DNA from: Steroidobacteraceae bacterium
GTDB taxonomy: Bacteria > Pseudomonadota > Gammaproteobacteria > Steroidobacterales > Steroidobacteraceae
DNA: 57,132 nt
Direction of reading: 5' to 3'
Assembly (NCBI GenBank): GCA_036497085.1
Contig: DASXKA010000187.1
Span: 1-57,132 of the forward strand
Part shown: positions 32,578-54,090 of the stretch, piece after piece
How positions within the stretch are numbered: position 1 is the first letter of the stretch
How the letters are laid out: each line of letters opens with the position of its first letter
Program-made: the position numbers and the translations under genes
The notes under the pieces: model-generated
Told to the model about the DNA's origin: nothing
Databases searched by the model: none
The model's input: the letters and a program-made list of their open reading frames with translations, nothing else

Positions 32578-32776
32578 GCTGCCGGAGGCTCGCCCGTGGT
32601 GCCTGCCACGATACGACGGCAGGTGGGCGCGGGCAAGTGGTCAGCCGCACAGATACGGTTGGGGGGTATGGTATACAGGGCGCGGGCGGCAACCCGCGAG
32701 ACGCCGCCGGCGGACCGGGCCCCGGACCGCCGGCCGCGGGGTGCCGCCCGCGGGCTTTGCGGCTATTCTTGGCGGC

Positions 32777-36531: not shown

Positions 36532-36534
36532 CCC

Positions 36535-37416: not shown

Positions 37417-38213
37417 CCTCGAGACTCCTCGTCAGGCCGGATCTCTCGGCCAACGCCCCGCAGGTGCACCTGGTTACCCCCCAGAGCGCGGGCTGGCGCT
37501 ACGTCGGCTTCGAAGTATTCGACCTCGCTCCGGGGCAAGCGCTCGCGCGCCGGCTCCCCGATCGCGAGCAGTGCCTGGTGTTGCTGTCGGGTCGCTCGAG
37601 CGTGCGCGTGGCGAGCGCCGACTGTGGCACGCTCGGCGCGCGCGCGCATCCCTTCGACGGCAAGCCGTTCGCGGTCTACGTGCCGCCGCGGACCGAGGTG
37701 CACCTCACGGCCGAGAGCCACTGCGAGCTCGCCGTGGGCTCGGCGCCAGCCCAGGGCCGGTTCCGCGCGCGCGTGATCAGTCCGGACGACGTACGGGAGG
37801 AGGTGCGGGGCACCGGCACCAACACCCGCTACGTGTACGACATACTTCCCGAGGGCACCGAGGCCGAGTCGCTCCTCGTGGTCGAGGTGCGCACCCCCGG
37901 CGGGCATTGGTCGAGCTACCCGCCCCACAAGCACGATTCCGCCGCCGGAGGAGAGAGTCAGCTCGAGGAGATCTACTACCATCGATTGTCGCGCCCGGGC
38001 GGTTTTGCCTTCCAGCGCGTTTTTACCGACGATCGCTCGCTCGACGAGACGATGTCGGTGGAGGATCGCGACCTGGTGCTGGTACCGCGCGGTCACCACC
38101 CGGTAAGCGCCCCGCACGGCTTTGACCTCTACTATCTGAACGTCATGGCAGGACCGGTGCGGCGCTGGCGCGTCACTTACGCGCCCGGCTACGAGTTCCT
38201 GACCCGGCGCTGA
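37413..38213 (+). CDS. iolB: 5-deoxy-glucuronate isomerase (cupin)
   Basis: GTGA overlap with the iolE stop. GHWSSYPPHKHD and EEIYYHR blocks. Confidence 0.85.
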   Translation: MTSRLLVRPDLSANAPQVHLVTPQSAGWRYVGFEVFDLAPGQALARRLPDREQCLVLLSGRSSVRVASADCGTLGARAHPFDGKPFAVYVPPRTEVHLTAESHCELAVGSAPAQGRFRARVISPDDVREEVRGTGTNTRYVYDILPEGTEAESLLVVEVRTPGGHWSSYPPHKHDSAAGGESQLEEIYYHRLSRPGGFAFQRVFTDDRSLDETMSVEDRDLVLVPRGHHPVSAPHGFDLYYLNVMAGPVRRWRVTYAPGYEFLTRR

Positions 38214-38225
38214 CGGCGGAAGGGT

Positions 38226-39227
38226 ATGGCGACGCTCGGCACGGCGGTACTCGGATGCGGGCGCATCGGCCGCCTGCATGCGCGCAATCTCGCGCGGCAC
38301 CCGCGCGCGCGGCTCGCGATGGTGTTCGACGTGGCCGGCGAGGTGGCACAGCAGGTCGCGGCCGGGATCGGCGTCCGCAGCGCCCGTAGCCTGGATGAGG
38401 TGTGGGACGAGCGCACCGTCCGCGCGGTGGTGATCGCTACACCCACCGACACCCACGTGCCGCTGATCGTCGCGGCGGTCAAGGCCGGCAAGGCGGTTTT
38501 CTGCGAGAAGCCGATCGACATGAGCCTCGAGCGCGCGCGCGCCTGCTGGGGTGAGATCGCCGCCGACAAGCCGAGCGTGATGATCGGCTTCAACCGCCGC
38601 TTCGATCCCTCCTACCGCGCCTTGCGCGAACGGCTCAAGCTCGGCGAGATCGGCAGCCTCGAGCTCGCGGTCATCACCAGCCGCGATCCGGCGCCGCCGC
38701 CGGCCGGCTACATCCTGAGCTCGGGCGGGCTGTTCCGCGACATGACCATTCACGACTTCGACATGGCGCGCTATCTCGCGGGCGACATCGCCAGGGTGCA
38801 TGCCTTCGGTGCGAACCTCGTCGACGCGGAGATCGGCAGGCTCGGTGACATCGATACCTGCGCGATCGCGCTGCGCGCCAAGTCCGGCGCGCTCATACAG
38901 ATCAACAACAGCCGCCGCTGCGTGTACGGCTACGATCAGCGCCTCGAGGCCTTCGGGTCGGGCGGCATGCTGCAGGCGGGCAATCGCCACGAGACCTCGG
39001 TCTCATCCTGGAGCGCCGAGCGCACCGCGGGACGCGACGCTGTGCTTCACTCCTTCATCGAGCGCTACGCGCAGGCCTATGAGGCCGAGATGGATGCCTT
39101 CGTCGCCGCGCTCGCGGAAGGCAGGCCGATGAGCCCGGACTTCGCCGACGGCGTGGAAGCGCTCAGACTCGCCGTGGCGGCGGGCGAGAGTCTGCGCACC
39201 GGGCGCGTGGTCGACGTCGGTCCTTAG
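38226..39227 (+). CDS. iolG: inositol 2-dehydrogenase (Gfo/Idh/MocA family)
   Basis: VLGCGRIGRLHARNL Rossmann motif and the GKAVFCEKP block. Context is consistent. Confidence 0.8.
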   Translation: MATLGTAVLGCGRIGRLHARNLARHPRARLAMVFDVAGEVAQQVAAGIGVRSARSLDEVWDERTVRAVVIATPTDTHVPLIVAAVKAGKAVFCEKPIDMSLERARACWGEIAADKPSVMIGFNRRFDPSYRALRERLKLGEIGSLELAVITSRDPAPPPAGYILSSGGLFRDMTIHDFDMARYLAGDIARVHAFGANLVDAEIGRLGDIDTCAIALRAKSGALIQINNSRRCVYGYDQRLEAFGSGGMLQAGNRHETSVSSWSAERTAGRDAVLHSFIERYAQAYEAEMDAFVAALAEGRPMSPDFADGVEALRLAVAAGESLRTGRVVDVGP

Positions 39228-40108
39228 AGCGGCCGCAGGGCGAGCCGGCGACGCGTCTCGGCCGGGGAGAGTACCCGTGCCCCGAGCAGCTCGACGATCT
39301 TCACGGCACGCTCGACCAGTTGCGCGTTGGTCGCCAGCACGCCCTTCTCGAGGTAGAGGTTGTCCTCGAGGCCGACCCGTACGTTGCCCCCGAGCAGCAC
39401 CGCCTGTGCGACCATCGGCATCTGCAGCCGGCCGACCCCGAAGGCCGACCACTGGACGTCGCGTGGCAGGGCGTCGCGCATCGCCAGCATGGCCTGTGCG
39501 GTCGCGGGGGCGCCGTAGCGAACGCCGAGGCACAGCTGAAAGAGTGCGGGCGCGGCGAACAGCCCCTCGCCGATCAGCTGCCGGGCGAGCTCGATGTGCC
39601 CGAGCTCGAAGACCTCGATCTCCGGGCGCACGCCGCGCGCGCGGTACTCCGCGGCGATGTCGCGCAGATAGCGTGGCGTAGTGCCGTACAGGGCCTCGTC
39701 GAAATTGAGCGATCCGCAGTCGAGGCTGCCGATCTCGGGACGCAGCTCGACGATGTGGGCGATGCGCTCGCGCGGGCCGACGAAGTCCGTCCCCTTGCCG
39801 AAGGAGAGCGGCGTCTCATCCGGTCCGAGCACCAGGTCGCCACCCATGCCGCCGGTGAGGTTGAGGATCACCTCGGCGTTGCGGCTGCGGATCCGGTCGA
39901 CGACCTCGCGATAGAGGGCGGTCGCGCGGCTCGGCGCGCCCGAGGCGGGATCCCGCACGTGGATGTGCACGATGGCCGCCCCGGCGGCATGGGCATCGAG
40001 AGCCGCCGTCGCAATCTGCGCGGGCGTCACCGGAACGCGCGGGCTTTTCCTGAGCGAATCGCCCGAGCCGGTGACCGCGCAGGTGATGAAAACCGCCTCG
40101 CTCGGCAC
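39224..40108 (-). CDS. BKACE-family (3-keto-5-aminohexanoate cleavage enzyme-like, DUF849) protein
   Basis: VFITCAVTG...VPVTPAQIA..A..A..AGAAIVHIHVRDP and GGNVRVGLEDNLYL blocks. Confidence 0.8.
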   Translation of the reverse strand: MPSEAVFITCAVTGSGDSLRKSPRVPVTPAQIATAALDAHAAGAAIVHIHVRDPASGAPSRATALYREVVDRIRSRNAEVILNLTGGMGGDLVLGPDETPLSFGKGTDFVGPRERIAHIVELRPEIGSLDCGSLNFDEALYGTTPRYLRDIAAEYRARGVRPEIEVFELGHIELARQLIGEGLFAAPALFQLCLGVRYGAPATAQAMLAMRDALPRDVQWSAFGVGRLQMPMVAQAVLLGGNVRVGLEDNLYLEKGVLATNAQLVERAVKIVELLGARVLSPAETRRRLALRPL

Positions 40109-40197: not shown

Positions 40198-41526
40198 ATG
40201 ACCAGGAACCGCTCGGTCGGCTGGGGGATGGGAGCGCTGCCGCGCATCGCGCGCGGCGAGGGCAGTTACCTCTACGACGCCGCCGGCCGCCGCTATCTCG
40301 ACGGCTCGGGCGGACCGGCCGCCTTTAGCATCGGGCACGGCAACCGTGAGGTGAATGCCGCGATTGCTGCGCAGCTCGAGCGGGTGGCGTGCGGCTATCG
40401 GTATCTGTTCACCAGCGAGCCGCTCGAGGAGCTGACGAGCCTGCTGCTCGCGCTCTGCGGGCCAGAGTTCGGGCACATCGTCTACTCGGGCAGCGGCTCG
40501 GAAGCGGTGGAGTCGGCGCTCAAGGTAGCGCTGCAATACTGGGACGCCCGCGGGTTCACGGGCAAGAAGCATTTCATCGCGCGCGAGCGCTCCTATCACG
40601 GCAACACGCTCGGGGCGCTCTCGGTGTCGGGATTTCTCGAGCGGCGGCGCCCGTTCACGGGTAGCCTGCTCGACGCATCCTTCGTGTCCGCGGCCAACGC
40701 CTATCGGCCGCTGCGTGGGCTCGCGGGCGCGGCGCTCACCGAGGCTCTCGCGGACGAGCTCGAGAAGAAGATCGGGGCACTCGGCGCCGAGCGGGTGGCC
40801 GGCTTCATCTTCGAGCCCGTCGTCGGAGCGGCGGGCGCAGCGGTGCCGGCGCCGGAGGGTTACGCACGCGCGGTGCAGGCCGTGTGCGCGCGGCACGGGG
40901 TGCTGCTAATCGCCGACGAGGTGATGTGCGGCTCCGGCCGCTGCGGCACGTGGCGCGCGCTCGAGCATGACGCGACGGTCCCCGACATCACGGCGGTGGG
41001 CAAGGGACTCGCGGGTGGCTATATCCCGCTCGCGGCGACGATCATCAGGCGCGAGGTCGGCGAGACGATTCTCGCTCAGCAGGGGGCCATCCTCACCGGA
41101 CACACCTACTCGGGCCACACCACCGCCTGTGCGGCGGCCCTCGCGGTCCAGCGCATCATTCAGCGCGAGGCGCTCGTCAGCCGGGTCCGGGAGCGCGGCG
41201 CGGTGTTGCTCGCGGAGCTGCAGGCCGCGCTCGGACGCTTTCGCCAGGTCGGGGACGTGCGCGGCCGGGGCTATCTCATCGGCATCGAGTTCGTGCGCGA
41301 TCGCGCCACGCGCACACCGTTGCCTCGCGAGCGCGCCTTCGCCCAGGCGCTCGGGCAGCGCGCGTTCGCAGACGGCCTCATCATCTACCCGTGCACCGGG
41401 AACGTCGGCGGCACCGCGGGCGACACCGTGATCGTGGCGCCGCCCTACAACGCGAGCGAGGCGGAGCTCGCCGAGCTGGTCGAGAAGCTCACGCGCGCCA
41501 TCGAGCGCACGCTCACAGGCGGGTGA
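40198..41526 (+). CDS. class III (omega-type) PLP aminotransferase
   Basis: GAGAGGA RBS. YLYDAAGRRYLDGSGG, SGSEAVESALK, IADEV, and AVGKGLAGGY (PLP Lys) blocks. Confidence 0.85.
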   Translation: MTRNRSVGWGMGALPRIARGEGSYLYDAAGRRYLDGSGGPAAFSIGHGNREVNAAIAAQLERVACGYRYLFTSEPLEELTSLLLALCGPEFGHIVYSGSGSEAVESALKVALQYWDARGFTGKKHFIARERSYHGNTLGALSVSGFLERRRPFTGSLLDASFVSAANAYRPLRGLAGAALTEALADELEKKIGALGAERVAGFIFEPVVGAAGAAVPAPEGYARAVQAVCARHGVLLIADEVMCGSGRCGTWRALEHDATVPDITAVGKGLAGGYIPLAATIIRREVGETILAQQGAILTGHTYSGHTTACAAALAVQRIIQREALVSRVRERGAVLLAELQAALGRFRQVGDVRGRGYLIGIEFVRDRATRTPLPRERAFAQALGQRAFADGLIIYPCTGNVGGTAGDTVIVAPPYNASEAELAELVEKLTRAIERTLTGG

Positions 41527-41556: not shown

Positions 41557-44283
41557 TCAGAACGTCTGTGCGATCTTCAGGGAGATCGTCCGCGGCTGGG
41601 TCGGAATCACGTACGGCTGCGGTCCGCAGGTCGTCGTCGCGCATTCCACGTAGCGGGTCAGTTCGGCGCGCTTGTCCGCAATGTTGTTGACGATGAGCTG
41701 CAGCGACAGGTTGTCTTTCGAAACGCCAGCCGAGAAGTCGAACAACTCGTAGGCCGCCATCTGTCCGAGCGAGATTTGATCGACGCGCCGCAACAATGGC
41801 TCGGTGCTGGTCTGGTACATCCCGGAGAGCTGCGTGAAGCCCTCCCACGATCCGAGCGGGAACGAGTAGCGCGCGACCAGGTTCAGCTTGAGCTCCGGAG
41901 CTACCGGCAGCCGGCTGCCCGACGGTGCTTCGGGACCCGTGAGCGTGATGCCATCGGCGTAGGTGATCACCTGGTTGGGGCAATTGGTCGTCAGAGTGGT
42001 GGTGTTCCCGATGTAATTACTCGCTCCGCCGGTGCCGACTGGACCGCAATAGTCAACCGTGGTCACCGCATGCAGATAGGTGAGCCCACTGGAGAGCAGC
42101 AGGCCGTTCACCGGTGCCCACTGCAGATCCGACTCGAAGCCTTTTATCTGCGCCGAGGCCGCATTCTGCACGACCGTCACGCTGTTGGGTCCGAGGAACA
42201 GGAACTGGAAATTGTCCCAGTTCTCGAGGAACGCCGCGGCGTTCCAGCGCAACCGGTGATCGAGCCACTGAGTCTTCCAGCCGATCTCCCAATTGACCAG
42301 AGTGTCGGCCTTGTATGGCGGATATACCGCGTTCAGAGCCACGTTGTACACCCGGTTCACACCGCCCGGGCGGAAGCCGGTGGAGTAGGTGAAATACAGG
42401 AGCTTGTCGGGATCAAGCTTGTAGGTGAGATTGGCTCGATACGTACGACCACTGTCGGAGACGTCCTGGTTGAGGTCGGTGCAGGGCGCGCCATGGAACG
42501 GCAGGTAATTCGGGTTTCCACCCACACCGACAGGTCCGCAGGCCCACTGCCCCGATGCGTGCGCGGTTTGCGGCGGACCGGAGGTATAGCCGCCCGCACC
42601 GATGTACGCCTGATAATTGGCCGAGTAGCCGTAAAAGCCCTGTATCGAATTGTCGTAGTGGTAGAAGCGCAGGCCGCCGGTGACCGACCACTGGTTGGTG
42701 ATGTCCCAGACCACCTGGCCGAACGCCGCGCTGTCACGGTCGACGCGCTCCTCGTCGGTGAGCCAAACCGAGTTTCCGTTGACCCCGGGGATGCTGAAGC
42801 TCTGGGCAAGGCCCGCCGCGGTGAAGGTCTCGGGAGAGTCAGTGCCGGGGATGGTGTACTGCTCCCAGATCTCGTGCACCTGGCGCTCGGCGAACAGGCC
42901 GACGATTCCCTTGACCGGCCGATCCTTCGGTGTAGCGAGCCGCAGCTCGTGACTCCATTTCGTGTAGGTTCCGTTGGTGATCACGAACTCCTGCGGATTC
43001 GCCACGAACGAGCCCGGGGGGAAGCTGGACGCCGGAGCGCCGCTGCAGTAGCCGCCTATTCCGTTTGCCTGCACGTAGTTGTAACCGGTCTGAGTCAGCC
43101 AGTTACATCCTGACCCGAAGAATTTGTCGTAGAAGTAGCTGTAGTCGCTGTAGTCGCTGACGGTGTGCTCTCTGCGATCGAACCAGCCGCCCGCATACGT
43201 GATGTCGAAGTCGCTGATCTTGCCTTCGATCGTGAGCGAGGTCTGCGTGAGACTGTCGTGGTCCCCTTCCGGACCGTAGTGCACCAGGGCGAGATCGCCT
43301 ACCACCGGGTCAAAGGCGAACACGCCGTTGGACGACTGCCGTTGTCCGAGGAATTGCGGCGTGATGGTCCAGTTGTCCCCGATTTTAGCCAGCACGGATG
43401 CGCGGCCGCCGATTGTGGCGACGGTGTTGTACTGGCTGTTCACGAAGGCGGCATTGCTGATCGAGTCCCCCGAGGTCGGAAACGTCCTGACACCGTTGAG
43501 GATGCCGGCCGTCACGTTGGTCCCCTGAACATTGCGAATATATCCCGCGTCGTGCTCGTCCCAGGCGACCAGGCGGATGGCCGCGGTCGGGGACAGCGGC
43601 ACGTTGACGTAACCCTCGGCAATCCACCCCTGACCGCCGTGATCCACCGTGTTGCCGGTGAGGTCGTAGCCCGCGGAGAACTTGTTGGGATCGGGCTTGT
43701 TGGTGATGATGCGGATGGTGCCGGCTTCCGAGCTCGCGCCATACAACGTGCCCTGCGGGCCTTCCAGTACCTCGATACGCGCGATGTCATAGACGTGGAT
43801 GTCGGGCGTACCGTCGATGGTCGTGATCGGCAGCTCGTCCAGGTAGGTGCCGACGCTCGGCTGCGCAGCCGAGTGGTTGCCGTCCTGGCCGCTCACCACC
43901 CCGCGCATGTAGACGTGCGTCGTGCCGATGCCGGTGCCGCCCTGGCCGAGCCCCTTGACGGTCGTGACGCCAGAGAGGGACTTGACGTAGTCGTCGATGT
44001 CCGTGATGTGCAGCTGCTCCAGCTTCTCGGAGCTCAGAGTCTGGATGCTGATCGGCACGTTCTGCAGGTTCTCGGCGCGCTTCTCCGCGGTGACCACGAT
44101 CTCCTCGAGAGCGCCGGCGGCGGCAGCGCCGGCCTGTGGGGCCGGCTGGGCCTGCTGTGCAAATGCGGCCGGAATGGCCGCCAGCACTGCGGAGGCCAGA
44201 GGCAGGCCAGCGCGGACCGGCACGCGCGAATGGGGCGAAGCGGCCGCTGCACGCATGAGTTTTCTGCGACGACTACGTGTCAT
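41557..44283 (-). CDS. TonB-dependent receptor
   Basis: ATGA overlap with the upstream sulfotransferase stop. Plug start EEIVVTAEKRAENLQNVPISIQTL. 908 aa, terminal ...KIAQTF. Confidence 0.9.
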   Translation of the reverse strand: MTRSRRRKLMRAAAASPHSRVPVRAGLPLASAVLAAIPAAFAQQAQPAPQAGAAAAGALEEIVVTAEKRAENLQNVPISIQTLSSEKLEQLHITDIDDYVKSLSGVTTVKGLGQGGTGIGTTHVYMRGVVSGQDGNHSAAQPSVGTYLDELPITTIDGTPDIHVYDIARIEVLEGPQGTLYGASSEAGTIRIITNKPDPNKFSAGYDLTGNTVDHGGQGWIAEGYVNVPLSPTAAIRLVAWDEHDAGYIRNVQGTNVTAGILNGVRTFPTSGDSISNAAFVNSQYNTVATIGGRASVLAKIGDNWTITPQFLGQRQSSNGVFAFDPVVGDLALVHYGPEGDHDSLTQTSLTIEGKISDFDITYAGGWFDRREHTVSDYSDYSYFYDKFFGSGCNWLTQTGYNYVQANGIGGYCSGAPASSFPPGSFVANPQEFVITNGTYTKWSHELRLATPKDRPVKGIVGLFAERQVHEIWEQYTIPGTDSPETFTAAGLAQSFSIPGVNGNSVWLTDEERVDRDSAAFGQVVWDITNQWSVTGGLRFYHYDNSIQGFYGYSANYQAYIGAGGYTSGPPQTAHASGQWACGPVGVGGNPNYLPFHGAPCTDLNQDVSDSGRTYRANLTYKLDPDKLLYFTYSTGFRPGGVNRVYNVALNAVYPPYKADTLVNWEIGWKTQWLDHRLRWNAAAFLENWDNFQFLFLGPNSVTVVQNAASAQIKGFESDLQWAPVNGLLLSSGLTYLHAVTTVDYCGPVGTGGASNYIGNTTTLTTNCPNQVITYADGITLTGPEAPSGSRLPVAPELKLNLVARYSFPLGSWEGFTQLSGMYQTSTEPLLRRVDQISLGQMAAYELFDFSAGVSKDNLSLQLIVNNIADKRAELTRYVECATTTCGPQPYVIPTQPRTISLKIAQTF

Positions 44284-46355
44284 GGAAGCTCCCCCGGATT
44301 GAGCGCGGCGCTCAGGGCCGCTTGCAATTCTATTGTCACATCAGAAGGTACGTTCGGGTAGGAGGTCGGCACCGATCCCAGCGCGGCGCGGAGCGGCTCG
44401 AGCCACGGCTCGTAATGTCGCCATTGTTCAAGGCCGGTCGTGAAGATCGGCTGGCGCACCTGCTCGGAGCTCGCAGTGCGCACCGCCCGCTCGTTGTCGT
44501 AGAACCTGAGGCAACTCGCCTCGAATTCCAGGCCGCAATTCGCCAGCAGCCGTCGCACCTCCTTCTCGGTGTCGACGACCATGTTCTCATAGAAGACGCG
44601 ATGCACTCTCCCGGGGAGCACTGTATCAAAGTGGTGCATGAGCGCGACGTAGTCACGGTAGTAGGAGCCTAAGTCCTGCAGCGCGTAGGTAAAGCTCTGG
44701 CCGCGGGCGAAGTGCTGCTTGAAGCAGGAGAAGCAGCACCCCATGGGGTGGCGCCGTGCATCGATGATGGTGGCGTTCGGGAGTATGAGATGAATGAGGC
44801 CGACATAGAGGCAGTTGTTCGGCATCTTGTCGATGAAGAACGGCGCGGCGCCCTTGCGCAGATGGCGGGTGCCGTCGAGATAACGTTCGCCGAGCACGCG
44901 CAGCTCCGTGCTGCTCAGACTGGCCAGCGCCTCGAAGAAGCCCGTACCGCGTTCCGAGCCGCCGCGCTCGGCCAGCTCGCGCGCGATCTGCGGCACATCC
45001 GGCAGCTCCATGGTCCCCTCGACGCACGAGTGGCTCGCGAGAATCTGCTCGAGCAGCGTCGAGCCGGCGCGCGGCAGGCCGAGAATGAAGATCGGGTCCC
45101 GGGCGGCGACCCCGGCGCCGGCGCGGGCGGCGAAAAACTCGCGGGTGAAAAGCTCGCGCGAGCGGCTCACGAACTCGGAATTCTCGGCGGCGCTGTAGGG
45201 CAGGGACTTCAGCCGCAGGGCATTGCCCGCCGCGTAGTGACGGAAGGACTCCTCATAGGACTCCTGGTCCTCGAGCGCCTTGCCGAGCGCGAACTCGAAG
45301 TGCAGCCGGTCCTCGTCACTCAGGTCGGTGCGCGCGAGCGCCGCACGCAGCGCCCCCACGTCGGCCGGCGAGAAAGCGAAGGTCTTGAGGTTCGCGAGGC
45401 TCCACCACGCCTCACCGAGGGCTGGCTCGCGGGCGATCGCGCCCCGGTACGCCGCGATGGCCTCGTCGGTGCGGCCGGTGGTCTTGAGCGAGTGCCCGTA
45501 GCTCATCCAGACCTTCGGCTGCTGCGGGAACTCCGCCAGCACCCGCTCGTAGATGCGGGCGGACTCCGCGTATTCGCCCAGGTTGACGAGCACTGCGGCC
45601 TTGAGATTCCGATAGCCGGGATTACGTGGCTCGCGGGCGAGCAGCTGCTCGACCTGCGGGAGCGCGGCGGCCGCCTTTCCCTGACGGTTGAGCACGACGG
45701 CGTAGTTGTGGCGCGCGGCGTCGAAGCCGGGTGCGAGCTCGAGGCAGCTCTCGAGCAGCGTCTGCGAGTCCCGCCAGCGCCGCAGCCGTGCGGCGACCTC
45801 CGCCAGCATGCGCAGCGCCGCGACATCGGTCGGGTAAGCCCGCAGGTGCGCCCGCAGCAGTGCTTCTGCTTCGGGAATGCGGTTCTCGACCAGGGCCGCC
45901 GCCGGGGCCAGCAGGCGTGGATCGCGCGTCGCGGCCTTGATGTGCCGCGCATAGGCCTCGTCCGCGCCCGTGACATCGCCCGCTCCCGCAAGGTGGTCGG
46001 CGAGCGCGCGCCAGGCGTCCGGCAGGTCGGGCTTGAGTGCAACGGCCCGGCGCAGCGCGGCGATCGCGGCTTCGCCCTGTCCGGCGCTCGCGAACGTCAT
46101 TCCGAGCTCGAACTGTGCCTCGGCCCATGCCGGCTGCCGGCGACAGAGCTCCTCCAGCCCGGTGAGCGCCGCTGGCAGGTCGCCGCTGGCGCGCTGCGCC
46201 ACCGCGAGCAACAGCCGTGCGCCGGGATGCCCGGGCACGACCTTGAGGATCTCAGAGGCCTGTTCGGCGGCGAGCACCGGCTGGGAAGAAAGCAGGCGCG
46301 CGGCGTGCTTCAGCGCGACCTCGAGCGAGCCTACGGGTTGCGACTCGCCGCTCAC
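44280..46355 (-). CDS. cytoplasmic TPR-repeat + PAPS-type sulfotransferase fusion protein
   Basis: ORF 44280..46397 trimmed to GTG 46355 (GTGA overlap with the ureohydrolase stop). ~400 aa of TPRs, then the 5'-PSB loop ILGLPRAGSTLLEQIL and a sulfotransferase-like C-domain. No signal peptide. Confidence 0.8.
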   Translation of the reverse strand: MSGESQPVGSLEVALKHAARLLSSQPVLAAEQASEILKVVPGHPGARLLLAVAQRASGDLPAALTGLEELCRRQPAWAEAQFELGMTFASAGQGEAAIAALRRAVALKPDLPDAWRALADHLAGAGDVTGADEAYARHIKAATRDPRLLAPAAALVENRIPEAEALLRAHLRAYPTDVAALRMLAEVAARLRRWRDSQTLLESCLELAPGFDAARHNYAVVLNRQGKAAAALPQVEQLLAREPRNPGYRNLKAAVLVNLGEYAESARIYERVLAEFPQQPKVWMSYGHSLKTTGRTDEAIAAYRGAIAREPALGEAWWSLANLKTFAFSPADVGALRAALARTDLSDEDRLHFEFALGKALEDQESYEESFRHYAAGNALRLKSLPYSAAENSEFVSRSRELFTREFFAARAGAGVAARDPIFILGLPRAGSTLLEQILASHSCVEGTMELPDVPQIARELAERGGSERGTGFFEALASLSSTELRVLGERYLDGTRHLRKGAAPFFIDKMPNNCLYVGLIHLILPNATIIDARRHPMGCCFSCFKQHFARGQSFTYALQDLGSYYRDYVALMHHFDTVLPGRVHRVFYENMVVDTEKEVRRLLANCGLEFEASCLRFYDNERAVRTASSEQVRQPIFTTGLEQWRHYEPWLEPLRAALGSVPTSYPNVPSDVTIELQAALSAALNPGELP

Positions 46356-47341
46356 GCACGCCGCGCGGCGCCGAAGTGACGGTCGGCGATGACGCACAGG
46401 ATCTCGTACATCATCGTGGCGCCGACGAGGGCGGTGTTGCCACTCTGGTCGTAGGGCGGGGCGACCTCGACGACGTCGCCGCCGATCAGGTTGAGACCGC
46501 GGAGCCCGCGCAGCAGGCGCTGCGCCTCGAGCGTCGTGATGCCGCCGACCTCGGGCGTGCCGGTGCCGGGGGCGTACACGGGATCGAGCCCGTCGACGTC
46601 GAAGGAAATGTAGGTCGGGCCGTCACCCACGATCGAGCGCGCCAGCGCGATCACCTTCTCGACGCCGAGCTCGGCGAACTCGTCCATGAACACGACGCGC
46701 ATGCCATGCGACTTCGAGAACTCGATGCCGTCGAGGAAATTCTGTGCGCCGCGGATCCCGATCTGGATGGTGCGCTTAGGGTCAAGCACGCCCGCCTCGA
46801 CCGCCAGGCGAAACGGCGCGCCGTGCGTGAACTTCGAGCCGAAGAATTCCCCCCAGGTGTCGCAATGTGCATCCACGTGCACCATGCCGACCGGCTGCTT
46901 CGCTCCCAGCGCCCTGAAGATCGGGTAGGTGATCGAGTGATCGCCACCGGCGCTCACCGGCAGGATGCCGGCCGCCTTCACCCGGCGGTAGAAGGCCTCG
47001 ATGTCCTCGTTCTGCCGCTCCAGGTCGTAGCGATGGGAGATATGGACGTCGCCGAGGTCGGCGACGCGGCACAGCTCATAAGGGTTGACGCCGAGCGCGA
47101 CGTTGTAGCCGCGCATCAGGCTCGAGGAATTGCGGATCTCGCGCGGGCCGTGGCGCGCGCCCGGCCGGTTGGTGACCGCGATGTCGGTCGGAACGCCGAT
47201 CAGCCCGATGTCGACGTTGTCGAGCGCGTGGGCGAGCGGACAGCGCATGAAGGTCGCGATCTCGGTGAAGCGCGGCTCGCTCATCGGATCGTAGGGCTTG
47301 CCGTCGCCCAGGGCTCGCTGCTCGTAGTCTTTGCTGCTCAT
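46352..47341 (-). CDS. agmatinase/guanidino-acid hydrolase (ureohydrolase family)
   Basis: ORF 46352..48295 trimmed to ATG 47341 (MSSKDYEQ...). Mn-site motifs SAGGDHSITYP, VHVDAHCDTW and SFDVDGLDPVYAPGTGTPEVGG are all intact. Confidence 0.85.
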   Translation of the reverse strand: MSSKDYEQRALGDGKPYDPMSEPRFTEIATFMRCPLAHALDNVDIGLIGVPTDIAVTNRPGARHGPREIRNSSSLMRGYNVALGVNPYELCRVADLGDVHISHRYDLERQNEDIEAFYRRVKAAGILPVSAGGDHSITYPIFRALGAKQPVGMVHVDAHCDTWGEFFGSKFTHGAPFRLAVEAGVLDPKRTIQIGIRGAQNFLDGIEFSKSHGMRVVFMDEFAELGVEKVIALARSIVGDGPTYISFDVDGLDPVYAPGTGTPEVGGITTLEAQRLLRGLRGLNLIGGDVVEVAPPYDQSGNTALVGATMMYEILCVIADRHFGAARRA

Positions 47342-47391
47342 GGTGCATCGCCCGAGCGGGTTGGATCTGAGGACACTATCGTGTGCGCCCC

Positions 47392-48420
47392 TCAGGTGGC
47401 CGTCAATCGACGGCGGCGCCGGTACTGGTCGGCGACCACGGCTGCGACGATGATCCCGCCCTTGACGATCTCCTGGTAGTAGGCGTCGATCCGCAGGAAC
47501 GTGAAGCCCGAGGTCACGACCCCAAGGATCAGCGTGCCTATCACCGTGCCGGTCATGCGCCCGACGCCGCCGGAGAGCGACGCGCCGCCGATCACCGCGG
47601 CGGCAATCGCATCGAGCTCGTACATGAGCCCCATGCCGGCCTGGCCCGAGACGGCGCGTGCCGAGGTGAGGACGCCTGCGAGGCCCGAGAGCAGCCCCGC
47701 AATGGAGTAGACCACGATCAGGTGCCGACCGACGCGGATCCCGGCGACGCGCGCCGCCTCGCGGTTGGCGCCGATCGCGTAGGTGAACTTGCCATAGCGT
47801 GTGTAGCGCAGCGCCACGTGAAAGAGCAGCGCGGTAGCGAGAAAGATGACGACCGGAACCGCACCGCTGCCGATGGCGGCATAGGAGTCGGTGAGCATGC
47901 TGACCGGCTGGCCGCGGGTGTACCACCTGGCGAGGCCGCGGGAACTCACCATGACCCCGAGAGTTGCGATGAAAGGCGGAATGCCGGTTGCGGCGATCAG
48001 CGTGCCGTTGACGAGACCGGCTGCGGCCCCGACCGCCAGTCCCGCGGCGACCGGCACGATGACCGGAAGATCGGTGAGCGCGGGATAGACCGCGCGCACC
48101 GCCTCCGAGGACTGGGCGAGGCTGGCGGCAACCATCGCGCTGAGAGCCACCACCGAGCCCGATGAGAGGTCGATGCCGCCGGTGATGATGACCTGGGTAA
48201 CGCCGACGGCGATGACGCCGACCACCGAGACCTGCAGGATCATTACCACCAGCCGCTGCTCGTTGGCGAGGAAGCTCTGATGGACGAAGATCCACCCGAG
48301 CAGCTCGAAGGCGAGCGCCAGTGCGATCAGCACCAGCGCAATTCCGGCCTCGGGCGGCAGGCGCCGCAGCCGCGCTGGTGCGGCGGATGGGGCGCTGCGG
48401 TCTGCCACGGACTGCCGCAT
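47392..48420 (-). CDS. CUT2 (ribose/inositol-type) sugar ABC transporter permease
   Basis: 342 aa, ~10 [15 protein letters not shown] and [10 protein letters not shown] blocks are typical of RbsC-like permeases. Confidence 0.85.
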
Positions 48421-48424
48421 GCGC

Positions 48425-49936
48425 TCAGCGTGCGGCCAGGTCCATGATCCGGACCGGGGTGGCTTCGTCGCGCCCGAGAATCCCGGCGACGTGCCCCTCG
48501 TGCATCACCATGATGCGGTGGCTGAGCGCGAGGATCTCGGGCATCTCGGAAGAGATCATCAGCACCGCAGTGCCCTCGGTCAGCAGGCGTCCAATGAGCT
48601 GGTGGATCTCCGCCTTGGCGCCTACATCCACCCCGCGAGTCGGCTCATCGAGGATCAGGACCTTCGGGCCCAGCAGGAGCCAGCGGCCGAGCAACACCTT
48701 CTGCTGGTTGCCGCCGGAGAGAGCCTCGATGCGTTCGCCGAGATCCGGGGTCTTGACCCGCAGTGCGCTCGCCATTGCGGCACACGCCCGCCGCGCGGCG
48801 CCCGCGCGCACGAAGCCAAGTCGGACGAAGTCGCGGGCGAGCGCCGAGATCTCCAGGTTCTCGAGCACGCTCAGCCCGACAAGGCAGCCGGTTTCCTTGC
48901 GATCCTCGGTCACGAAGCCGAGGCCGCGGGAGATCGCCGCCGCCGGTGAGTCGAGGTGTACCGTACTGCCCCCGATGCGGATCTCACCCGCCGTCGGGCG
49001 CAGCAGTCCAAATAGCGTCTCGGCGAGCTTGCTGCGTCCCGAGCCCACGAGCCCGGCGACGCCGACGATCTCCCCGGCGTGCAGCTCGAAGCTCACGTCG
49101 TAAAACGCGCCCTCCAGGCTCAGGCCGTGCGCCGACAAGGCGACCGGACCCGCCGGCGCCGGCACCCCCGCGGGCGGCGGCGCGAGCTCGCGCCCCACCA
49201 TCATGCGGATGAGGTCGCCGCGCGTGAGCTGGCGCGGGCTCGCGGTGCCAATGTGCCGGCCGTCACGCAGCACGGAGATCTCGTCCGCGAGCGCGAACAG
49301 CTCCTCGATCCGGTGGGTGACGTAGAAGATGCCGACGCCGCGCGCCCGCAGGTCGCGAATCAGTGCAAACAGCCGCTCGGCGTCGCGCTCAGTGAGCGCC
49401 GAGGTCGGCTCATCCATGATGAGGACCCGCGAATCGTAGGACAGCGCGCGTGCGATCTCGACCATCTGGCGCGCGGCGAGCGGCAGCGTCCGCAGCGGCG
49501 CCTCCGGATCGAGGTCGATGCCCAGCCGCTCGAGCAGGGTGCGCGTGCGGCGGTGGAGCTCGCGATGACGGACCAACCCCAGGGCATTCACCGGCTCGCG
49601 GCGGATCCAGATGTTCTCGGCGACGCTCATCGAAGGCAGCAGGTTCAGCTCCTGATGGATCATGGCGATGCCCGCCTCGAGCGCCTGTCCCGGGGAGCCG
49701 AGGCGCAGCGCGCGCCCCTCGAGGCGCAGCTCGCCGGCATCCGGCGTGCACGCGCCCGCGATTATCCTCATCAGCGTCGACTTGCCGGCTCCGTTTTCGC
49801 CGAGCAGCGCGTGCACCGTGCCGTGCCTGAGGCGCAGGGTCACGTCCTCGAGCGCGGCGACGCCGGGGAAACTCTTCGAGACCCTGCTCACTTCGAGCAG
49901 GTCGGGTCTCACGGGGGGAGCGATGGCAGCTCCCAT
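48425..49936 (-). CDS. CUT2 sugar ABC transporter ATP-binding protein (two fused NBDs)
   Basis: Walker [10 protein letters not shown], signature LSGGNQQK, Walker B ILDEPT. 503 aa. Confidence 0.9.
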
Positions 49937-50863
49937 CTAGTGCCGCCCGAGGTAGCCCGCGAGGTTGTCGCGCGTCACCAGCTCGAACGGTACCCATACG
50001 AAGGACGGCACCGGCTCGTGCCGCACGAGCTTGAGAGCGGTTTCCAGGGCGCCGCGGCCCTGTGCGGGCGCGTTCTGGAACACCGTCAGCCGCAGCGCCC
50101 CGGCCTTCATCTCGGCGAGCGCATCCGGGGTTGCGTCGACTCCGGCAACGATGGTGCTGCCGAGCAGGTTTGCCTGCCTGAGCGCCTGAATGGCGCCGAT
50201 CGCCATCTCATCGTCGTTGGCGACCACGGCGGCCGGATGCAGGCCCGCGCTCAGCCAGTTGGTCACGAGGTCAGCCGCCGCGGTGCGTTTCCAGTCCGCG
50301 GCCTGCCGGTCGACGACGCGGATGCCACGGCAGGCGGGCCGGGCGATCACGTCGTCGATATCCCGGGTGCGCTGGCGCGCCGACTGGTTCGTGAGCTCGC
50401 CCATCAGCACGACGATGTCCCCCTTGCCCCCGAGGAGCCGGCAGACCTCGGTCATCTGCAGCGTGCCGGACTCGGTCTCGTCCGAGCCAACGAAGGAGAC
50501 CCGCGGCGGCAGCTGCCTGTCGGCCGGCATGCGGTTCACGTACACGAGCGGAATGCCGGCGTTCACCACCAGGCGCGTCATGCGCGGAGTTGCGTCGGTG
50601 TCGACCGGATTGACGATGATGGCGTCGACGTGCTGGGCGATGAAGTTCTGGATTTGATTGAGCTGCCGGCCGATGTCGTTGCCGGCGTCCTCGAACTGAA
50701 TCTGCACGCCGAGCTGCTGCGCGCGCTCCTTCATGCTGGCACGCACCGCGGTCAGGAAGTTATCGTCGAACAGGGCCATCGATACACCCACCGTGGCTGC
50801 CTGCACGGTGGGGAACAGTGCCGCCAGGGTACCGACGAGCAACACCAGCGATACGGGCTTCAT
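49937..50863 (-). CDS. CUT2 sugar ABC transporter periplasmic substrate-binding protein (RbsB-like)
   Basis: Signal peptide MKPVSLVLLVGTLAALFPTVQA. NDIGRQLNQIQNFIAQHVDAIIVNPVD block. The stop abuts the ATPase start. Confidence 0.85.
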   Translation of the reverse strand: MKPVSLVLLVGTLAALFPTVQAATVGVSMALFDDNFLTAVRASMKERAQQLGVQIQFEDAGNDIGRQLNQIQNFIAQHVDAIIVNPVDTDATPRMTRLVVNAGIPLVYVNRMPADRQLPPRVSFVGSDETESGTLQMTEVCRLLGGKGDIVVLMGELTNQSARQRTRDIDDVIARPACRGIRVVDRQAADWKRTAAADLVTNWLSAGLHPAAVVANDDEMAIGAIQALRQANLLGSTIVAGVDATPDALAEMKAGALRLTVFQNAPAQGRGALETALKLVRHEPVPSFVWVPFELVTRDNLAGYLGRH

Positions 50864-50934: not shown

Positions 50935-51519
50935 GTGGACCGGCGCGAGTTCCTCGGATCGATCGCGGGCATTTCCGCATTACTGCCGGGACTGTCGCTG
51001 CTGTCGTTGCAGCAGCCGTCCTTCGCCGCGGCGCTGCACACGCGCGCTGCAGCGGCGGGTCTGCGCACGCTCAGCCCCGAGCAGGACGCGGCCGTCACCT
51101 GCATCGCAGAGATCCTCCTGCCCCAGACCGACAGCGTCGGGGCAACCCAGGTGGGTGTAAACCGCTTCATCGATCTGCTGCTGACCGAGTCGATGCCGGA
51201 GCGCGATCGCGCGCGTTTCCTCGAGGGGCTTGCGGCCATCGACGCGCGCAGCCGCCTGCTCGGCGGTGCACCGGTCGCAGCCGCCAGCCGGCAGGACCAG
51301 GAGTCGCTGATCCGCTCCCTCGACGGGCAGCTGCCCGCGTACCCTCCGACCCGGGCCGAGCAGGCGCTGCTCGAGCGGCAGCCGATGACGGCGGAGCGCG
51401 GTTACGAGCTCCTGAAGCATCTGGTGGTCTTCGCCTACTTCACCTCCGAGCCGGTGGCGAAGGATCTCATCAACGCTCCGATCATTCCCGGAAGGTACGA
51501 TGGCTGTGTCAGCGTCTGA
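50935..51519 (+). CDS. Tat-signal small subunit (gluconate 2-dehydrogenase subunit 3 family)
   Basis: The ORF is 50818..51519. I prefer GTG 50935 (VDRREFLGSIAG..., Tat motif); GTG 50917 or ATG 50875 are possible. C-terminal HLVVFAYFTSE block. Confidence 0.65.
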   Translation: MDRREFLGSIAGISALLPGLSLLSLQQPSFAAALHTRAAAAGLRTLSPEQDAAVTCIAEILLPQTDSVGATQVGVNRFIDLLLTESMPERDRARFLEGLAAIDARSRLLGGAPVAAASRQDQESLIRSLDGQLPAYPPTRAEQALLERQPMTAERGYELLKHLVVFAYFTSEPVAKDLINAPIIPGRYDGCVSV

Positions 51520-53209
51520 GCCGAAGTCCGGGAGCTACGACGCGATCGTCGTGGGTTCCGGGATCTCCGGCGGCTGGGCCGCCAAAGAGCTCACCGAGAA
51601 CGGGCTCAGAACGCTGTTGCTCGAGGCCGGACCGCCGATCGTGCCTGAGCGGGACTTCGTCGAGCACGTGCAGGATTATTCGCTCCCGTACCGGGGCTAC
51701 GGCAACCTGCGCAAGCTGCACGCCGAGCGGCCCATTCAGTCGCAGGCCGGTGCCTGCGATGAGTGGGTCTCAAAATGGTTCGTCGACGACCACGAGAACC
51801 CCTACCACAACGACAGCGACAAGCCGTTCCTGTGGATCCGCGGGCGTCACGTCGGTGGCCGCTCCCTCATGTGGGGGCGGCAGGTCTACCGCTGGAGCGA
51901 CCTCGACTTCGAAGCCAACGCGCGCGAGGGCATCGGTGTCGACTGGCCGATCCGCTACGCGGATATCGCCCCCTGGTACAGTCATGTCGAGAAATTCATA
52001 GGCGTGAGCGGCCAGGCGGAGGGGCTGGCGCAGCTTCCCGACGGGGAATTTCTGCCGCCCATGCAGCTCAACTGCGCGGAGCTGCACGTGCGCGAGGCGA
52101 TGAGCAGGCGCTGGGGGCGCGAGCGCGTGCTCACCATCGGCCGCGCGGCGATCCTTACCCAGCCGCACCTCGGGCGCGCCGCCTGTCACTACTGCGGGCC
52201 GTGCTGGCGCGGGTGCATCACCCACTCGTATTTCAACAGCGTCGGCTCGACGCTGCCGGCGGCGGCGGCCACCGGGCGCCTGACGCTGCGGCCCAACAGT
52301 GTGGTCGCGGAGGTGCTTTACGACGAGCGCACCAACCGCGCGAGCGGCGTGCGCGCGGTCGATGCCGATACGCTCGAGACGCTCGAGTTCCGTGCGCGGC
52401 TGGTGTTCGTGTGCGCCTCGGCGCTCGAGAGCGCCCGGATACTCCTCAACTCGAAGAGCGCTCACTTCCCGGCGGGACTCGCCAACTCGAGCGGGGAGCT
52501 CGGCCGCAACCTCATGGACCATACCTTTGGCGCGGGCGCCGAGGCGACCATCCCGGGCATGGAAGACCACAAGACGTTCGGCCACCGGCCGAACGGTATC
52601 TACGTACCGCGTTTTCGCAACGTGACCGACAAGCACGCGAAGTTCGTGCGCGGCTATGGTTTCCAGGGCGGCGGCGGCCGCGGAGGCTGGGAGCGCGGTG
52701 CGCGCCAGAAGGGCTTCGGCGCGGCCTTCAAGAGCTCGCTGCTGCGCGAGTTCGGTCCGTGGCGCGTCGGCCTGGGCGGCTTCGGCGAGTGTCTGCCGCG
52801 CTCCGACAACTCCTGCACGCTCCACCCGACGCTGAAGGACAAGTGGGGCGTACCGGCGCTGCACATCCAGTGCACCCTCGGACCGAACGAGCTCGAGATC
52901 CTCAAGGACATGCAGGTGACGGCAGCGGAGATCCTGGAGGCGGCCGGGGCGAAAGGGATCCGCACCTTCAACGATGAGCTCGCGCCGGGACTGTGCATCC
53001 ACGAGATGGGAACGGCGCGCATGGGACGGGATCCGAAGACCTCGGTACTGAACGGGTGGAATCAGGCGCACGACGTGCCGAACGTATTCGTGACCGACGG
53101 TGCCTGCATGACGTCCTCGGGGAATCAGAACCCGTCGATCACCTACATGGCGCTCACCGCACGCGCCTGTGAATACGCCGTCCAGCAGCTCAAGCGCGGA
53201 GATATCTAA
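51500..53209 (+). CDS. GMC-family FAD oxidoreductase
   Basis: YDAIVVGSGISGGWAAKEL FAD motif. C-terminal HEMGTARMG and NVFVTDGA blocks. No own signal peptide. 20-nt overlap with the small subunit. Confidence 0.85.
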   Translation: MAVSASEPKSGSYDAIVVGSGISGGWAAKELTENGLRTLLLEAGPPIVPERDFVEHVQDYSLPYRGYGNLRKLHAERPIQSQAGACDEWVSKWFVDDHENPYHNDSDKPFLWIRGRHVGGRSLMWGRQVYRWSDLDFEANAREGIGVDWPIRYADIAPWYSHVEKFIGVSGQAEGLAQLPDGEFLPPMQLNCAELHVREAMSRRWGRERVLTIGRAAILTQPHLGRAACHYCGPCWRGCITHSYFNSVGSTLPAAAATGRLTLRPNSVVAEVLYDERTNRASGVRAVDADTLETLEFRARLVFVCASALESARILLNSKSAHFPAGLANSSGELGRNLMDHTFGAGAEATIPGMEDHKTFGHRPNGIYVPRFRNVTDKHAKFVRGYGFQGGGGRGGWERGARQKGFGAAFKSSLLREFGPWRVGLGGFGECLPRSDNSCTLHPTLKDKWGVPALHIQCTLGPNELEILKDMQVTAAEILEAAGAKGIRTFNDELAPGLCIHEMGTARMGRDPKTSVLNGWNQAHDVPNVFVTDGACMTSSGNQNPSITYMALTARACEYAVQQLKRGDI

Positions 53210-54090
53210 TGGCCGGCAGGCTTTCCCGACGGCGCTTCCTCGGCGCCGCGGCAGGCTCGGTCGCGGCCCTCGGCCCGGCCGCCGCGCTCGCGAGTGGCAG
53301 GGTGGAAACCACGGCGCTACCCGCGGCCCCGGGGCGGCTCAAGCAGTCGGTATGCCGCTGGACGCTGCCGGGGGCGCTGCCGGAAGTATGTCGGCGCGTG
53401 CGCGGACTCGGGCTCCAGGCGATCGACCTTCTCCATATCGACGAGTGGGAAGTTGCCCGCGCTGCGGGCCTCACCTGCTCGATGGGATACGCGAGTCGCC
53501 GCGATCACTTCATCGATAAGGGCTTCAGCGACCCGGCGAACCACGCCCTGTTGATCGAGGAGCTGAGCGCCGCGATTCCACTCGCCGCCAGGGCGGGCGT
53601 TCCCAACGTCATCGCGATGTTCGGCAACCGGCGGGGCCTGAGCGATTCCGAGGGAATCGCCAACTGCGCCGCGGGACTCAGCGGGGTGGCGCCGATCGCC
53701 GAGCGGCACGGCGTCACCGTGTGCGTCGAGCTCCTCAACAGCAAGGTCGATCACCCGGACTACCAGGGCGATCACGCGGCCTTCGGCGTGGCGGTGATGG
53801 AGAAGGTGGGATCGCCGCGCGTCAAGCTCCTCTATGACATCTATCACATGCAGATCATGGAGGGGGATATCATCCGCACCGTCGGCCAGCACCGGCGGTG
53901 GATCGGCCATTTCCATACCGGCGGGGTGCCCGGCCGGCACGACATCGACGAAACGCAGGAGCTCAACTATCGCGCGGTGGCTGGAGCGATCGCCGACGGC
54001 AAGTTCGAGGGCTACGTCGCGCACGAGTTCACGGCGAAAGGAGATCCCTACGCGGGGCTCGCCGCGGCCTGCCGGATCTGTCAGGTATGA
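53209..54090 (+). CDS. Tat-exported xylose-isomerase-like TIM-barrel protein (hydroxypyruvate-isomerase-like family)
   Basis: TAATG overlap with the GMC stop. Tat signal SRRRFLGAAAG. KQSVCRW, VELLNSK, YDIYHMQIMEGD, HFHTGG blocks. Confidence 0.8.
   Translation: MAGRLSRRRFLGAAAGSVAALGPAAALASGRVETTALPAAPGRLKQSVCRWTLPGALPEVCRRVRGLGLQAIDLLHIDEWEVARAAGLTCSMGYASRRDHFIDKGFSDPANHALLIEELSAAIPLAARAGVPNVIAMFGNRRGLSDSEGIANCAAGLSGVAPIAERHGVTVCVELLNSKVDHPDYQGDHAAFGVAVMEKVGSPRVKLLYDIYHMQIMEGDIIRTVGQHRRWIGHFHTGGVPGRHDIDETQELNYRAVAGAIADGKFEGYVAHEFTAKGDPYAGLAAACRICQV

Follow-up and report, generated by a model that had tools for sequence, protein, structure and literature searches.

The six genes at the locus

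The DNA analyzed here is a 57,132-nt stretch, contig DASXKA010000187.1 (assembly GCA_036497085.1), of a Steroidobacteraceae bacterium, and "the window" refers to this whole stretch. Six of its genes run on the minus strand from position 50863 to 41557 and encode an ATP-binding cassette (ABC) importer of the CUT2 type, a ureohydrolase, a sulfotransferase fused to tetratricopeptide repeats (TPR) and a TonB-dependent receptor (TBDR). The ureohydrolase gene is termed gpuA, and the last two genes the cassette. Gene calls, scans of the window proteins against Pfam and NCBIfam, and reading of the sequence bear out the identities, gaps, overlaps and motifs that an initial annotation had given for these genes. 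We consider it probable (about 0.7) that the string is a mosaic of an ABC importer belonging to an inositol locus (module 1), a guanidino-acid catabolic set (module 2) and an inserted sulfotransferase-TBDR cassette (module 3), brought side by side in one lineage of soil bacteria.

49937..50863 (-): CUT2 periplasmic sugar/polyol-binding protein; Peripla_BP_4 1.7e-57; module 1
48425..49936 (-): fused double ABC ATPase, AraG/RbsA-like; two ABC_tran domains; module 1
47392..48420 (-): CUT2 permease; BPD_transp_2 7e-41; module 1
46352..47341 (-): predicted GpuA-type guanidino-acid amidinohydrolase of the ureohydrolase superfamily; PF00491 2e-88; module 2
44280..46355 (-): cytoplasmic TPR protein with a sulfotransferase domain of the 3'-phosphoadenosine-5'-phosphosulfate (PAPS) type, cassette gene 1; Sulfotransfer_3 (PF13469) 9.8e-45 plus TPR families; module 3
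41557..44283 (-): TBDR, cassette gene 2; Plug and barrel domains; module 3

The gaps from the binding protein to the ureohydrolase measure 0, 4 and 50 nt, and are followed by a GTGA overlap at 46352-46355 (ureohydrolase/sulfotransferase) and an ATGA overlap at 44280-44283 (sulfotransferase/TBDR). The GTG start of the sulfotransferase is backed by the N-termini of its homologues (consensus MSGxSQxxGSLEVAL). No terminator-like site lies between the six genes; the only three matches all fall within coding sequence, and their number is below the shuffle expectation. Co-transcription is therefore plausible, and judging from the sequence, the six genes are probably transcribed together in the window. 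A promoter scan with the sigma-70 consensus, which may not suit the host, found nothing, and a hairpin spanning the gpuA stop and the sulfotransferase start is no better than in shuffled sequence (z = -0.66).

A different explanation, which builds on the initial annotation, is that all six genes serve a single pathway. A guanidino-sugar or guanidino-cyclitol would be imported by the TBDR together with the CUT2 ABC system, the ureohydrolase would remove its amidino group, the neighboring aminotransferase and the inositol (iol) enzymes would finish the route, and the sulfotransferase would modify the substrate. We agree that this combination of genes is not a described pathway. The lack of an internal terminator-like site is in keeping with the single-pathway explanation, which the comparisons below nevertheless render quite unlikely.

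A cassette at a fixed chromosomal slot

Downstream of the receptor gene lies a convergent gene:

40198..41526 (+): class-III (omega) aminotransferase, convergent with the operon; Aminotran_3 2e-86; module 2

Neighborhoods of gpuA were collected as 80 metagenome loci seeded on the window ureohydrolase (79-97% identical) and several long contigs, and were mapped by tblastn; every locus in this metagenome sample holds gpuA by construction. When the window is compared by blastn with two of the loci, L103 and L108, homology ends at the gpuA stop codon and restarts at the aminotransferase stop codon. In L103 and L108, these two stop codons are 3-4 nt apart, and the 4.8 kb that hold the sulfotransferase and TBDR genes are exactly missing. 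As read from these junctions, the cassette was inserted precisely where the convergent gpuA and aminotransferase genes meet; in relatives that lack it, the two genes directly adjoin each other. Informative metagenome loci, in which the tblastn map places the aminotransferase as well as gpuA, number 27; the cassette is present in 16 of them and absent from 11.

Where the slot is occupied, it can hold very different alleles. Compared with window positions 41557-46355, the cassettes in the identical slot of L097, L098, L096 and L093 include alleles whose sulfotransferase and TBDR are 86/62, 76/50 and 60/36% identical to those of the window, and the flanking gpuA and aminotransferase genes around the divergent alleles are 84-97% identical. 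Around the 60/36% alleles, the flanks are 88-95% identical. Either replacement of the cassette or diversifying selection acting on the surface receptor could have produced this pattern. The window cassette is itself mixed, with its sulfotransferase nearest to that of L001 (88%) and its TBDR nearest to those of L004 and L086 (81-83%). Repeats flanking the cassette, sought as signs of mobility, amounted only to chance-level matches.

The initial annotation had held that the enzymes are locked to the receptor by overlapping codons and form one unit. This claim does not survive the comparison: the pair is absent from L103 and L108, is replaced by divergent alleles at this junction in other relatives, and occurs without any ureohydrolase in ~70 other loci of the genome survey described below. 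Because the cassette is optional, divergent and mixed, the overlapping codons are a local feature and not a conserved lock.

Neighborhoods of gpuA in relatives

The genes around gpuA fall into six arrangement types, in which ABC denotes the importer genes, BKACE a beta-keto acid cleavage enzyme, MFS a major facilitator superfamily transporter and SSF a solute:sodium symporter family carrier:

Type A (window-like): ABC - gpuA - sulfotransferase - TBDR - aminotransferase(-) - BKACE - iolGBE; L001, L006, L090, L093, L096-L098
Type B: type A minus sulfotransferase and TBDR; L103, L107-L109, L128, L129
Type C: ABC - gpuA - aldolase - MFS - sulfotransferase - TBDR - aminotransferase(-) - MFS(-) - BKACE; L005, L100-L102, L105
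Type D: gpuA - aldolase - MFS - sulfotransferase - TBDR, with no ABC and no iol genes; L004, L086
Type E: BKACE(-) - amine oxidase - gpuA ... aminotransferase - TBDR(-) - sulfotransferase(-) - MFS(-) - aldolase(-), with the cassette present or not; L132-L154
Type F: SSF carrier - gpuA; L088, L130, L167

The genes for gpuA, a class-II aldolase, an MFS transporter, the aminotransferase, BKACE and an amine oxidase stay linked across at least four gene orders, whether ABC and iol genes are present or not. That this set survives such rearrangements is good evidence for a common pathway. In L004, L086 and the type E loci, the module 2 island has neither ABC nor iol genes beside it, and ureohydrolase orthologues 80-85% identical to that of the window accompany SSF or MFS carriers, again without iol or ABC genes. 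Conversely, among the gpuA-seeded loci, the ABC genes are found only where the island lies within an iol locus.

A triad of ureohydrolase, TPR-sulfotransferase and TBDR does recur in at least four gene orders and is therefore not a one-off adjacency; its recurrence is confined to one Steroidobacteraceae subclade. Separately, a set of gamma-glutamyl-polyamine type (Gln-synt_C, two aldehyde dehydrogenases, Fe-ADH and Peptidase_C26) lies upstream of the gpuA-aldolase-MFS-cassette operon in one type D locus (L086:181-9266).

A predicted guanidino-acid gene set

The metal-ligand motifs of the ureohydrolase are intact in its translation (GGDHS, VDAHCDT, SFDVDGLDP and VVEVAPPYD). Against the PDB, it scores 381 bits with the Pseudomonas aeruginosa 3-guanidinopropionase GpuA (3NIP) and 302 bits with the guanidinobutyrase GbuA (3NIO), both matches spanning ~307 residues, compared with 219 bits for PAH, 199-207 for agmatinases and <100 for arginases. 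Homologues of the protein are annotated as guanidinopropionase by JGI. Residue R77 of the window protein (SSLMRGYN) aligns with R72 of GbuA (VMIRPYN) and with the GpuA segment SLMRKV. The human counterpart of GbuA R72, R105, makes a modeled contact with the acidic end group of the substrate, and enzymes of this guanidino-acid hydrolase branch require a negatively charged end group and do not hydrolyze agmatine (PMC9772407). The likeness to GpuA and GbuA together with the conserved arginine argues for a guanidino acid as substrate and against a cyclitol. Thus, the guanidino-sugar or cyclitol substrate proposed in the initial annotation is unlikely, and by sequence, the window enzyme is closest to a GpuA-type guanidino-acid hydrolase.

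Of two agmatinase models, NF002564 scores 281.9 on the protein, below its cut-off of 302, and TIGR01230 scores 189.4, above its cut-off of 174.3. Among the scanned window genes, neither speA nor any other gene for polyamine biosynthesis was recognized. In line with the initial annotation, the enzyme is probably not a housekeeping polyamine agmatinase.

Three further window genes, in addition to the aminotransferase, are assigned to module 2:

39224..40108 (-): BKACE; PF05853 2e-94; PDB 3C6C 282 bits; module 2
30101..30904 (-): class-II aldolase/adducin-family protein; Aldolase_II 4e-39; module 2, displaced
28863..30062 (-): MFS transporter, likely the inner-membrane carrier of module 2; MFS_1 2e-61

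Loci of types A, C and E hold BKACE along with gpuA. In L004, L005, L086 and others, gpuA is followed by a gene 72-83% identical to the window aldolase, and the window MFS transporter is 65% identical to the one between aldolase and sulfotransferase in L005.

In the route that we propose for module 2, a guanidino acid would enter across the inner membrane by way of the MFS transporter at 28.9-30.1 kb and not the ABC system. The amidinohydrolase would cleave urea off this compound, the convergent class-III aminotransferase would deaminate the resulting omega-amino acid, and BKACE and the class-II aldolase would act later. If the substrate is 3-guanidinopropionate, the route would run via beta-alanine to malonate semialdehyde. 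The iol pathway ends at malonate semialdehyde as well, and this common end product could then explain why gpuA and iol genes are co-located.

The window enzyme shares with P. aeruginosa GpuA (3NIP/3NIQ) and GbuA (3NIO) the arginase fold, the metal motifs and the arginine aligned to GbuA R72. Moreover, some of its orthologues, 80% identical to it, adjoin an SSF carrier, which is also the gene order of gpuP-gpuA in P. aeruginosa. Unlike in that organism, gpuA of the window sits behind a CUT2 ABC operon within an iol locus, and the gpu system as described lacks the class-II aldolase, MFS transporter, BKACE and amine oxidase that accompany gpuA in relatives of the window.

An ABC importer in an inositol locus

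The three genes of module 1 constitute a CUT2 ABC importer, with a Peripla_BP_4 protein, a fused double ATPase and a BPD_transp_2 permease in a single operon. The binding protein falls below every NCBIfam equivalog cut-off, and its best match among solved structures is 4YO7 (195 bits), which is deposited only as a sugar-binding protein and may contain myo-inositol. The ATPase is both AraG-like (536 bits) and RbsA-like (514 bits), and the permease MglC-like (244 bits), all under the respective cut-offs. The importer is flanked by two further gene groups:

32558..39227 (+): iolC(+DUF2090)-iolD-iolE-iolB-iolG inositol catabolism cluster; PfkB plus DUF2090, TPP enzyme, AP_endonuc_2, KduI/IolB and GFO_IDH_MocA domains
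50935..54090 (+): divergent operon with a small subunit carrying a twin-arginine translocation (TAT) signal, a GMC oxidoreductase and a xylose-isomerase-like TIM barrel; GMC_oxred_N/C and AP_endonuc_2 domains

The iol cluster shares one locus with the ABC genes, with five unrelated genes between transporter and iol genes. Among the scanned window genes, there is no aldehyde dehydrogenase that could correspond to iolA. The iolC-like gene (window 32558-34696, plus strand) encodes a PfkB kinase with a fused DUF2090 domain. The GMC operon starts 71 nt from the start of the ABC operon. Its TAT-signal small subunit was read from the sequence and is homologous to an L001 gene that carries PF13618; the set of small subunit, oxidoreductase and TIM barrel resembles glycoside 3-dehydrogenase-type systems. 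We propose that module 1 would serve the surrounding inositol/sugar catabolic locus as a sugar/polyol importer, with iolCDEBG on one side and the GMC dehydrogenase operon on the other. A comparable system is the Caulobacter inositol importer IbpA-IatA-IatP with its iol operons, in which a CUT2 architecture likewise shares a locus with iolCDEBG. However, the window binding protein is only distantly similar to IbpA (4IRX, 93 bits), and the five intervening genes set the window apart.

These results bear on the single-pathway explanation from both sides. In its favor, the ABC operon and gpuA remain adjacent, with a gap of 50-87 nt, in types A, B and C and also in L124 and L126, and the neighboring aminotransferase and iolG could in principle convert an inosamine to an inosose. 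However, the window aminotransferase is a class-III omega-transaminase, and known scyllo-inosose aminotransferases are of the DegT type. The ureohydrolase keeps the arginine of guanidino-acid hydrolases (PMC9772407), its close orthologues travel with SSF or MFS carriers away from iol and ABC genes, and the cassette is optional at its junction. The initial annotation had also proposed the TBDR and the ABC system as an import route across two membranes; this is probably not the case, given that the island carrier in relatives is an MFS or SSF protein and that the island exists without ABC genes. With the guanidino-cyclitol pathway unlikely, the string is probably a local mosaic of limited importance.

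A widespread sulfotransferase-TBDR pair

The cassette itself is much more broadly distributed. In an alignment-based scan for the sulfotransferase, with one genome per species, the best 80 loci of at least 600 matching stretches were examined. Steroidobacteraceae, Lysobacteraceae, Rhodanobacteraceae, Caulobacterales and Rhizomicrobium are among the groups represented, and culturable carriers include Steroidobacter flavus (L046), Lysobacter dokdonensis (L075) and Caulobacter sp. KR2-114 (L071). Enough sequence downstream of the sulfotransferase to be informative was available for 74 loci. In all 74, from Gamma- and Alphaproteobacteria, a homologous TBDR lies beside the sulfotransferase: directly downstream on the same strand in 70, and adjacent in another order in 4. 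The median gap between the two genes is ~45 nt. The partner TBDRs are 36-70% identical to that of the window in these best-80 genome loci, or 36-83% when metagenome loci are included. The window conforms to this pattern, with the TPR-sulfotransferase followed by a homologous TBDR on the same strand after a 4-nt overlap.

Clustering of all flanking reading frames in 79 cassette loci revealed no other conserved partner, the next family occurring in 10-14 of the 79 loci at most. Recurrent, non-universal neighbors include Rieske oxygenases, APC permeases, flavin amine oxidases, amidohydrolases, OYE/TMADH-like flavoproteins, M20 peptidases, aminotransferases, aldehyde dehydrogenases and thiolases. 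Sulfotransferase paralogues that are 43-45% identical also pair with TBDRs, in arrays. Pairwise distances among the sulfotransferases are correlated with those among the TBDRs (r = 0.76; Mantel 0/999), which could be explained by co-inheritance alone. Literature searches for the combination of sulfotransferase, TBDR and TPR found nothing relevant, and no paper on the pair. The cassette is a real, widespread and previously undescribed gene pair. It is probably an ancient, widely spread two-gene unit that lands at the 3' ends of operons, often those for catabolism of nitrogen compounds.

The arrays take several forms (L026:9959-20027, L171:1-9028 and L170:1732-9010), such as sulfotransferase-TBDR-TBDR-sulfotransferase, or two sulfotransferases after a TBDR. 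One of the arrayed sulfotransferases bears a SEC-C motif, and in L171, MFS, SGL, TauD and Asp/Arg-hydroxylase genes come after the array. The sulfotransferase domain family as a whole has 9,931 cluster representatives at 50% identity (E <= 1e-30), and the domain also occurs in two to five copies in giant proteins, for example P0361 (2492 aa) and P0368 (2819 aa).

Candidate functions of the cassette

The sulfotransferase has no signal peptide. Its translation contains the segment LPRAGSTLLEQ, and the PAPS-binding motifs, the 5'-phosphosulfate-binding (5'-PSB) motif PRxGST and the 3'-phosphate-binding (3'-PB) motif RR.P...S, are invariant in alignments A1, A2 and A3. The TPR part consists of ~19 predicted helices spread over ~400 residues of TPR-like repeats, and matches the TPR array of O-GlcNAc transferase (OGT) at 3e-25. 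A full-length structural model from 14 sequences had a poor catalytic domain, with key segments at pLDDT <50, and was kept out of the fold search. A model of the domain only, built on a two-subfamily alignment, reached a pLDDT of 79.8 and a pTM of 0.80. In a Foldseek search of the PDB with this model, the first 13 matches consist solely of TPST1, TPST2 and tick TPST (E 7.6e-9 to 2e-7).

The TBDR has plug (1.7e-15) and barrel (2.5e-33) domains, and a signal-like N-terminus and a TonB-box-like segment, EEIVVTAEKR, were read in its sequence. It would supply TonB-powered uptake across the outer membrane. No NCBIfam cut-off for a siderophore, haem or B12 subfamily was reached, the best being TIGR01783 with 105 bits against a cut-off of 223.5. 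As in the TBDR nutrient loci of Xanthomonas and Caulobacter (carbohydrate utilization, CUT, loci), the receptor gene adjoins those of inner-membrane carriers and catabolic enzymes.

One possibility is that the cassette works within the guanidino/amine island, with the TBDR importing the island substrate and the enzyme carrying out O- or N-sulfation of a small molecule, whether substrate, intermediate or toxic analogue. The cassette and the gpuA island occur together in four gene orders, and elsewhere the cassette lies near Rieske oxygenases, APC permeases, amine oxidases, amidohydrolases, aminotransferases and M20 peptidases. In addition, the best PDB sequence matches of the sulfotransferase are enzymes of the CurM/OLS type, although in a PDB profile search with alignment A2, one full-length row brought in TPR contamination, and only weak CurM and TPST matches were usable. 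Set against this, spending PAPS on a nutrient would be costly, a TPR array of this length is unusual for a small-molecule enzyme, and the top structural matches are protein sulfotransferases. Furthermore, the sulfotransferase remains 54-88% identical, with invariant motifs, while the neighboring catabolic genes, and with them the presumed substrates, change completely. We therefore regard a small-molecule role within the island as doubtful.

The long TPR array and the TPST-like model of the catalytic domain make a protein or peptide client likelier than an imported nutrient. The sulfotransferase would sulfate such a client, possibly the receptor precursor or a ligand of the receptor. Human TPST1/2, tick TPST and Xanthomonas RaxST share with the window enzyme the PAPS-type fold and the Pfam family Sulfotransfer_3. 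However, the TPSTs are only 16-20% identical to it and have no N-terminal TPR array of ~400 residues, and RaxST is not known to have such an array either. A TPR superhelix followed by a C-terminal transferase is found in OGT, which is a glycosyltransferase and not a sulfotransferase, and FlmG is likewise a TPR array fused to a protein-modifying transferase. RaxST, so far the only tyrosine sulfotransferase characterized from bacteria, is cytoplasmic, and its reported targets are RaxX and Omp1X, a protein of the outer membrane (PMC4892823). In contrast to that system, the window cassette has no raxX-like peptide gene and no RaxA/RaxB nearby, and its invariable partner is a TBDR; neither a raxX-type substrate gene nor a RaxA/RaxB exporter was seen in any of the loci examined. 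Genomic neighborhoods in which TonB-type receptors are co-encoded with halogenases, dioxygenases and sometimes sulfotransferases have been read as siderophore-like metabolite biosynthesis (Iyer et al. 2010; PMC2938197). Those neighborhoods hold no fixed two-gene unit of TPR-sulfotransferase and TBDR, and the surroundings of the window cassette are catabolic, not biosynthetic.

The TPR array, the modeled TPST-like fold and the RaxST precedent weakly favor a protein or peptide client. The more specific proposal, that this is a bacterial protein (tyrosine) sulfotransferase whose client is the co-encoded TBDR precursor or a peptide recognized by the receptor, is speculative and, in this full form, unlikely.

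A candidate sulfation site was considered in the receptor. The segment DYxDYxxxYD (window 43126-43155, TBDR residues 377-386) immediately precedes a highly variable, insertion-prone part of the TBDR, and its three tyrosines are invariant in 74 of 74 main-group receptors. The candidate was dropped, since receptors that pair with paralogous sulfotransferases lack the segment, and it is not counted as evidence for sulfation. The other TBDR of the window lacks it too. That other TBDR belongs to a gene group at 6280-11389 (plus strand) with a 524-aa TPR protein, which has no sulfotransferase domain, and an alpha/beta hydrolase. The group was tried as a relative of the cassette and rejected as unrelated, its TBDR being 24% identical to that of the cassette.

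Elsewhere in the window, at 17879-26936, a PAS histidine kinase gene is followed by genes for two large GGDEF-EAL proteins, of which one also has a receiver domain and the other PAS domains; a 3-hydroxyisobutyrate-dehydrogenase-like gene lies between these two.

Observations that weigh against the mosaic reading

Several results count against the mosaic of three modules or the roles proposed for them. In L124 and L126, gpuA is the sole extra gene between the ABC and iol genes, and the aminotransferase, BKACE and cassette are gone; some link between ABC importer and gpuA may therefore exist. The likeness to the TPST fold is modest (TM 0.52-0.66, 16-20% identity), and CurM/OLS and Stf rank next. 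Each family of nitrogen catabolism near the cassette occurs in at most 18% of the loci, and these are raw, uncorrected frequencies. Finally, three contigs (L111, L113 and L117) carry a ~1.8-kb deletion that removes most of the sulfotransferase gene, as seen when L111 (13059-13511) is aligned with L086 (13100-14880), with flanks 98-99% identical between these two. The last ~110 sulfotransferase codons and an intact 901-aa TBDR frame are left. Because the receptor frame is intact beside the deleted gene in all three, the receptor may not need the enzyme. The lack of DYxDYxxxYD in receptors of the paralogous enzymes likewise speaks against a strict dependence.

These natural deletions would fit a further explanation, in which sulfotransferase and TBDR are neighbors by descent only and functionally unlinked; plain co-inheritance would also produce the observed distance correlation. 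Nevertheless, this explanation is strongly disfavored. The pair is kept in every informative locus of two proteobacterial classes while every other neighbor has turned over, it persists in the 43-45% identical paralogues and in reversed order, and both genes are swapped jointly at one slot.

Implications

All six protein families of the string are familiar. The main interest lies in a TPR-fused, TPST-like sulfotransferase that is tied to a TBDR in every informative genome. Cassette turnover can be tested at this locus, where presence, absence and divergent alleles occur in one slot between conserved flanks, and the contigs with a natural sulfotransferase deletion provide comparison material. 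To our knowledge, bacterial protein sulfation has so far been known essentially from RaxST. If the sulfotransferase family sulfates proteins or peptides, this field would be much enlarged and tied to outer-membrane transport. If the client is the receptor precursor or a peptide that the receptor recognizes, thousands of Gamma- and Alphaproteobacteria would use sulfation in the maturation of an outer-membrane transporter or in setting its specificity.

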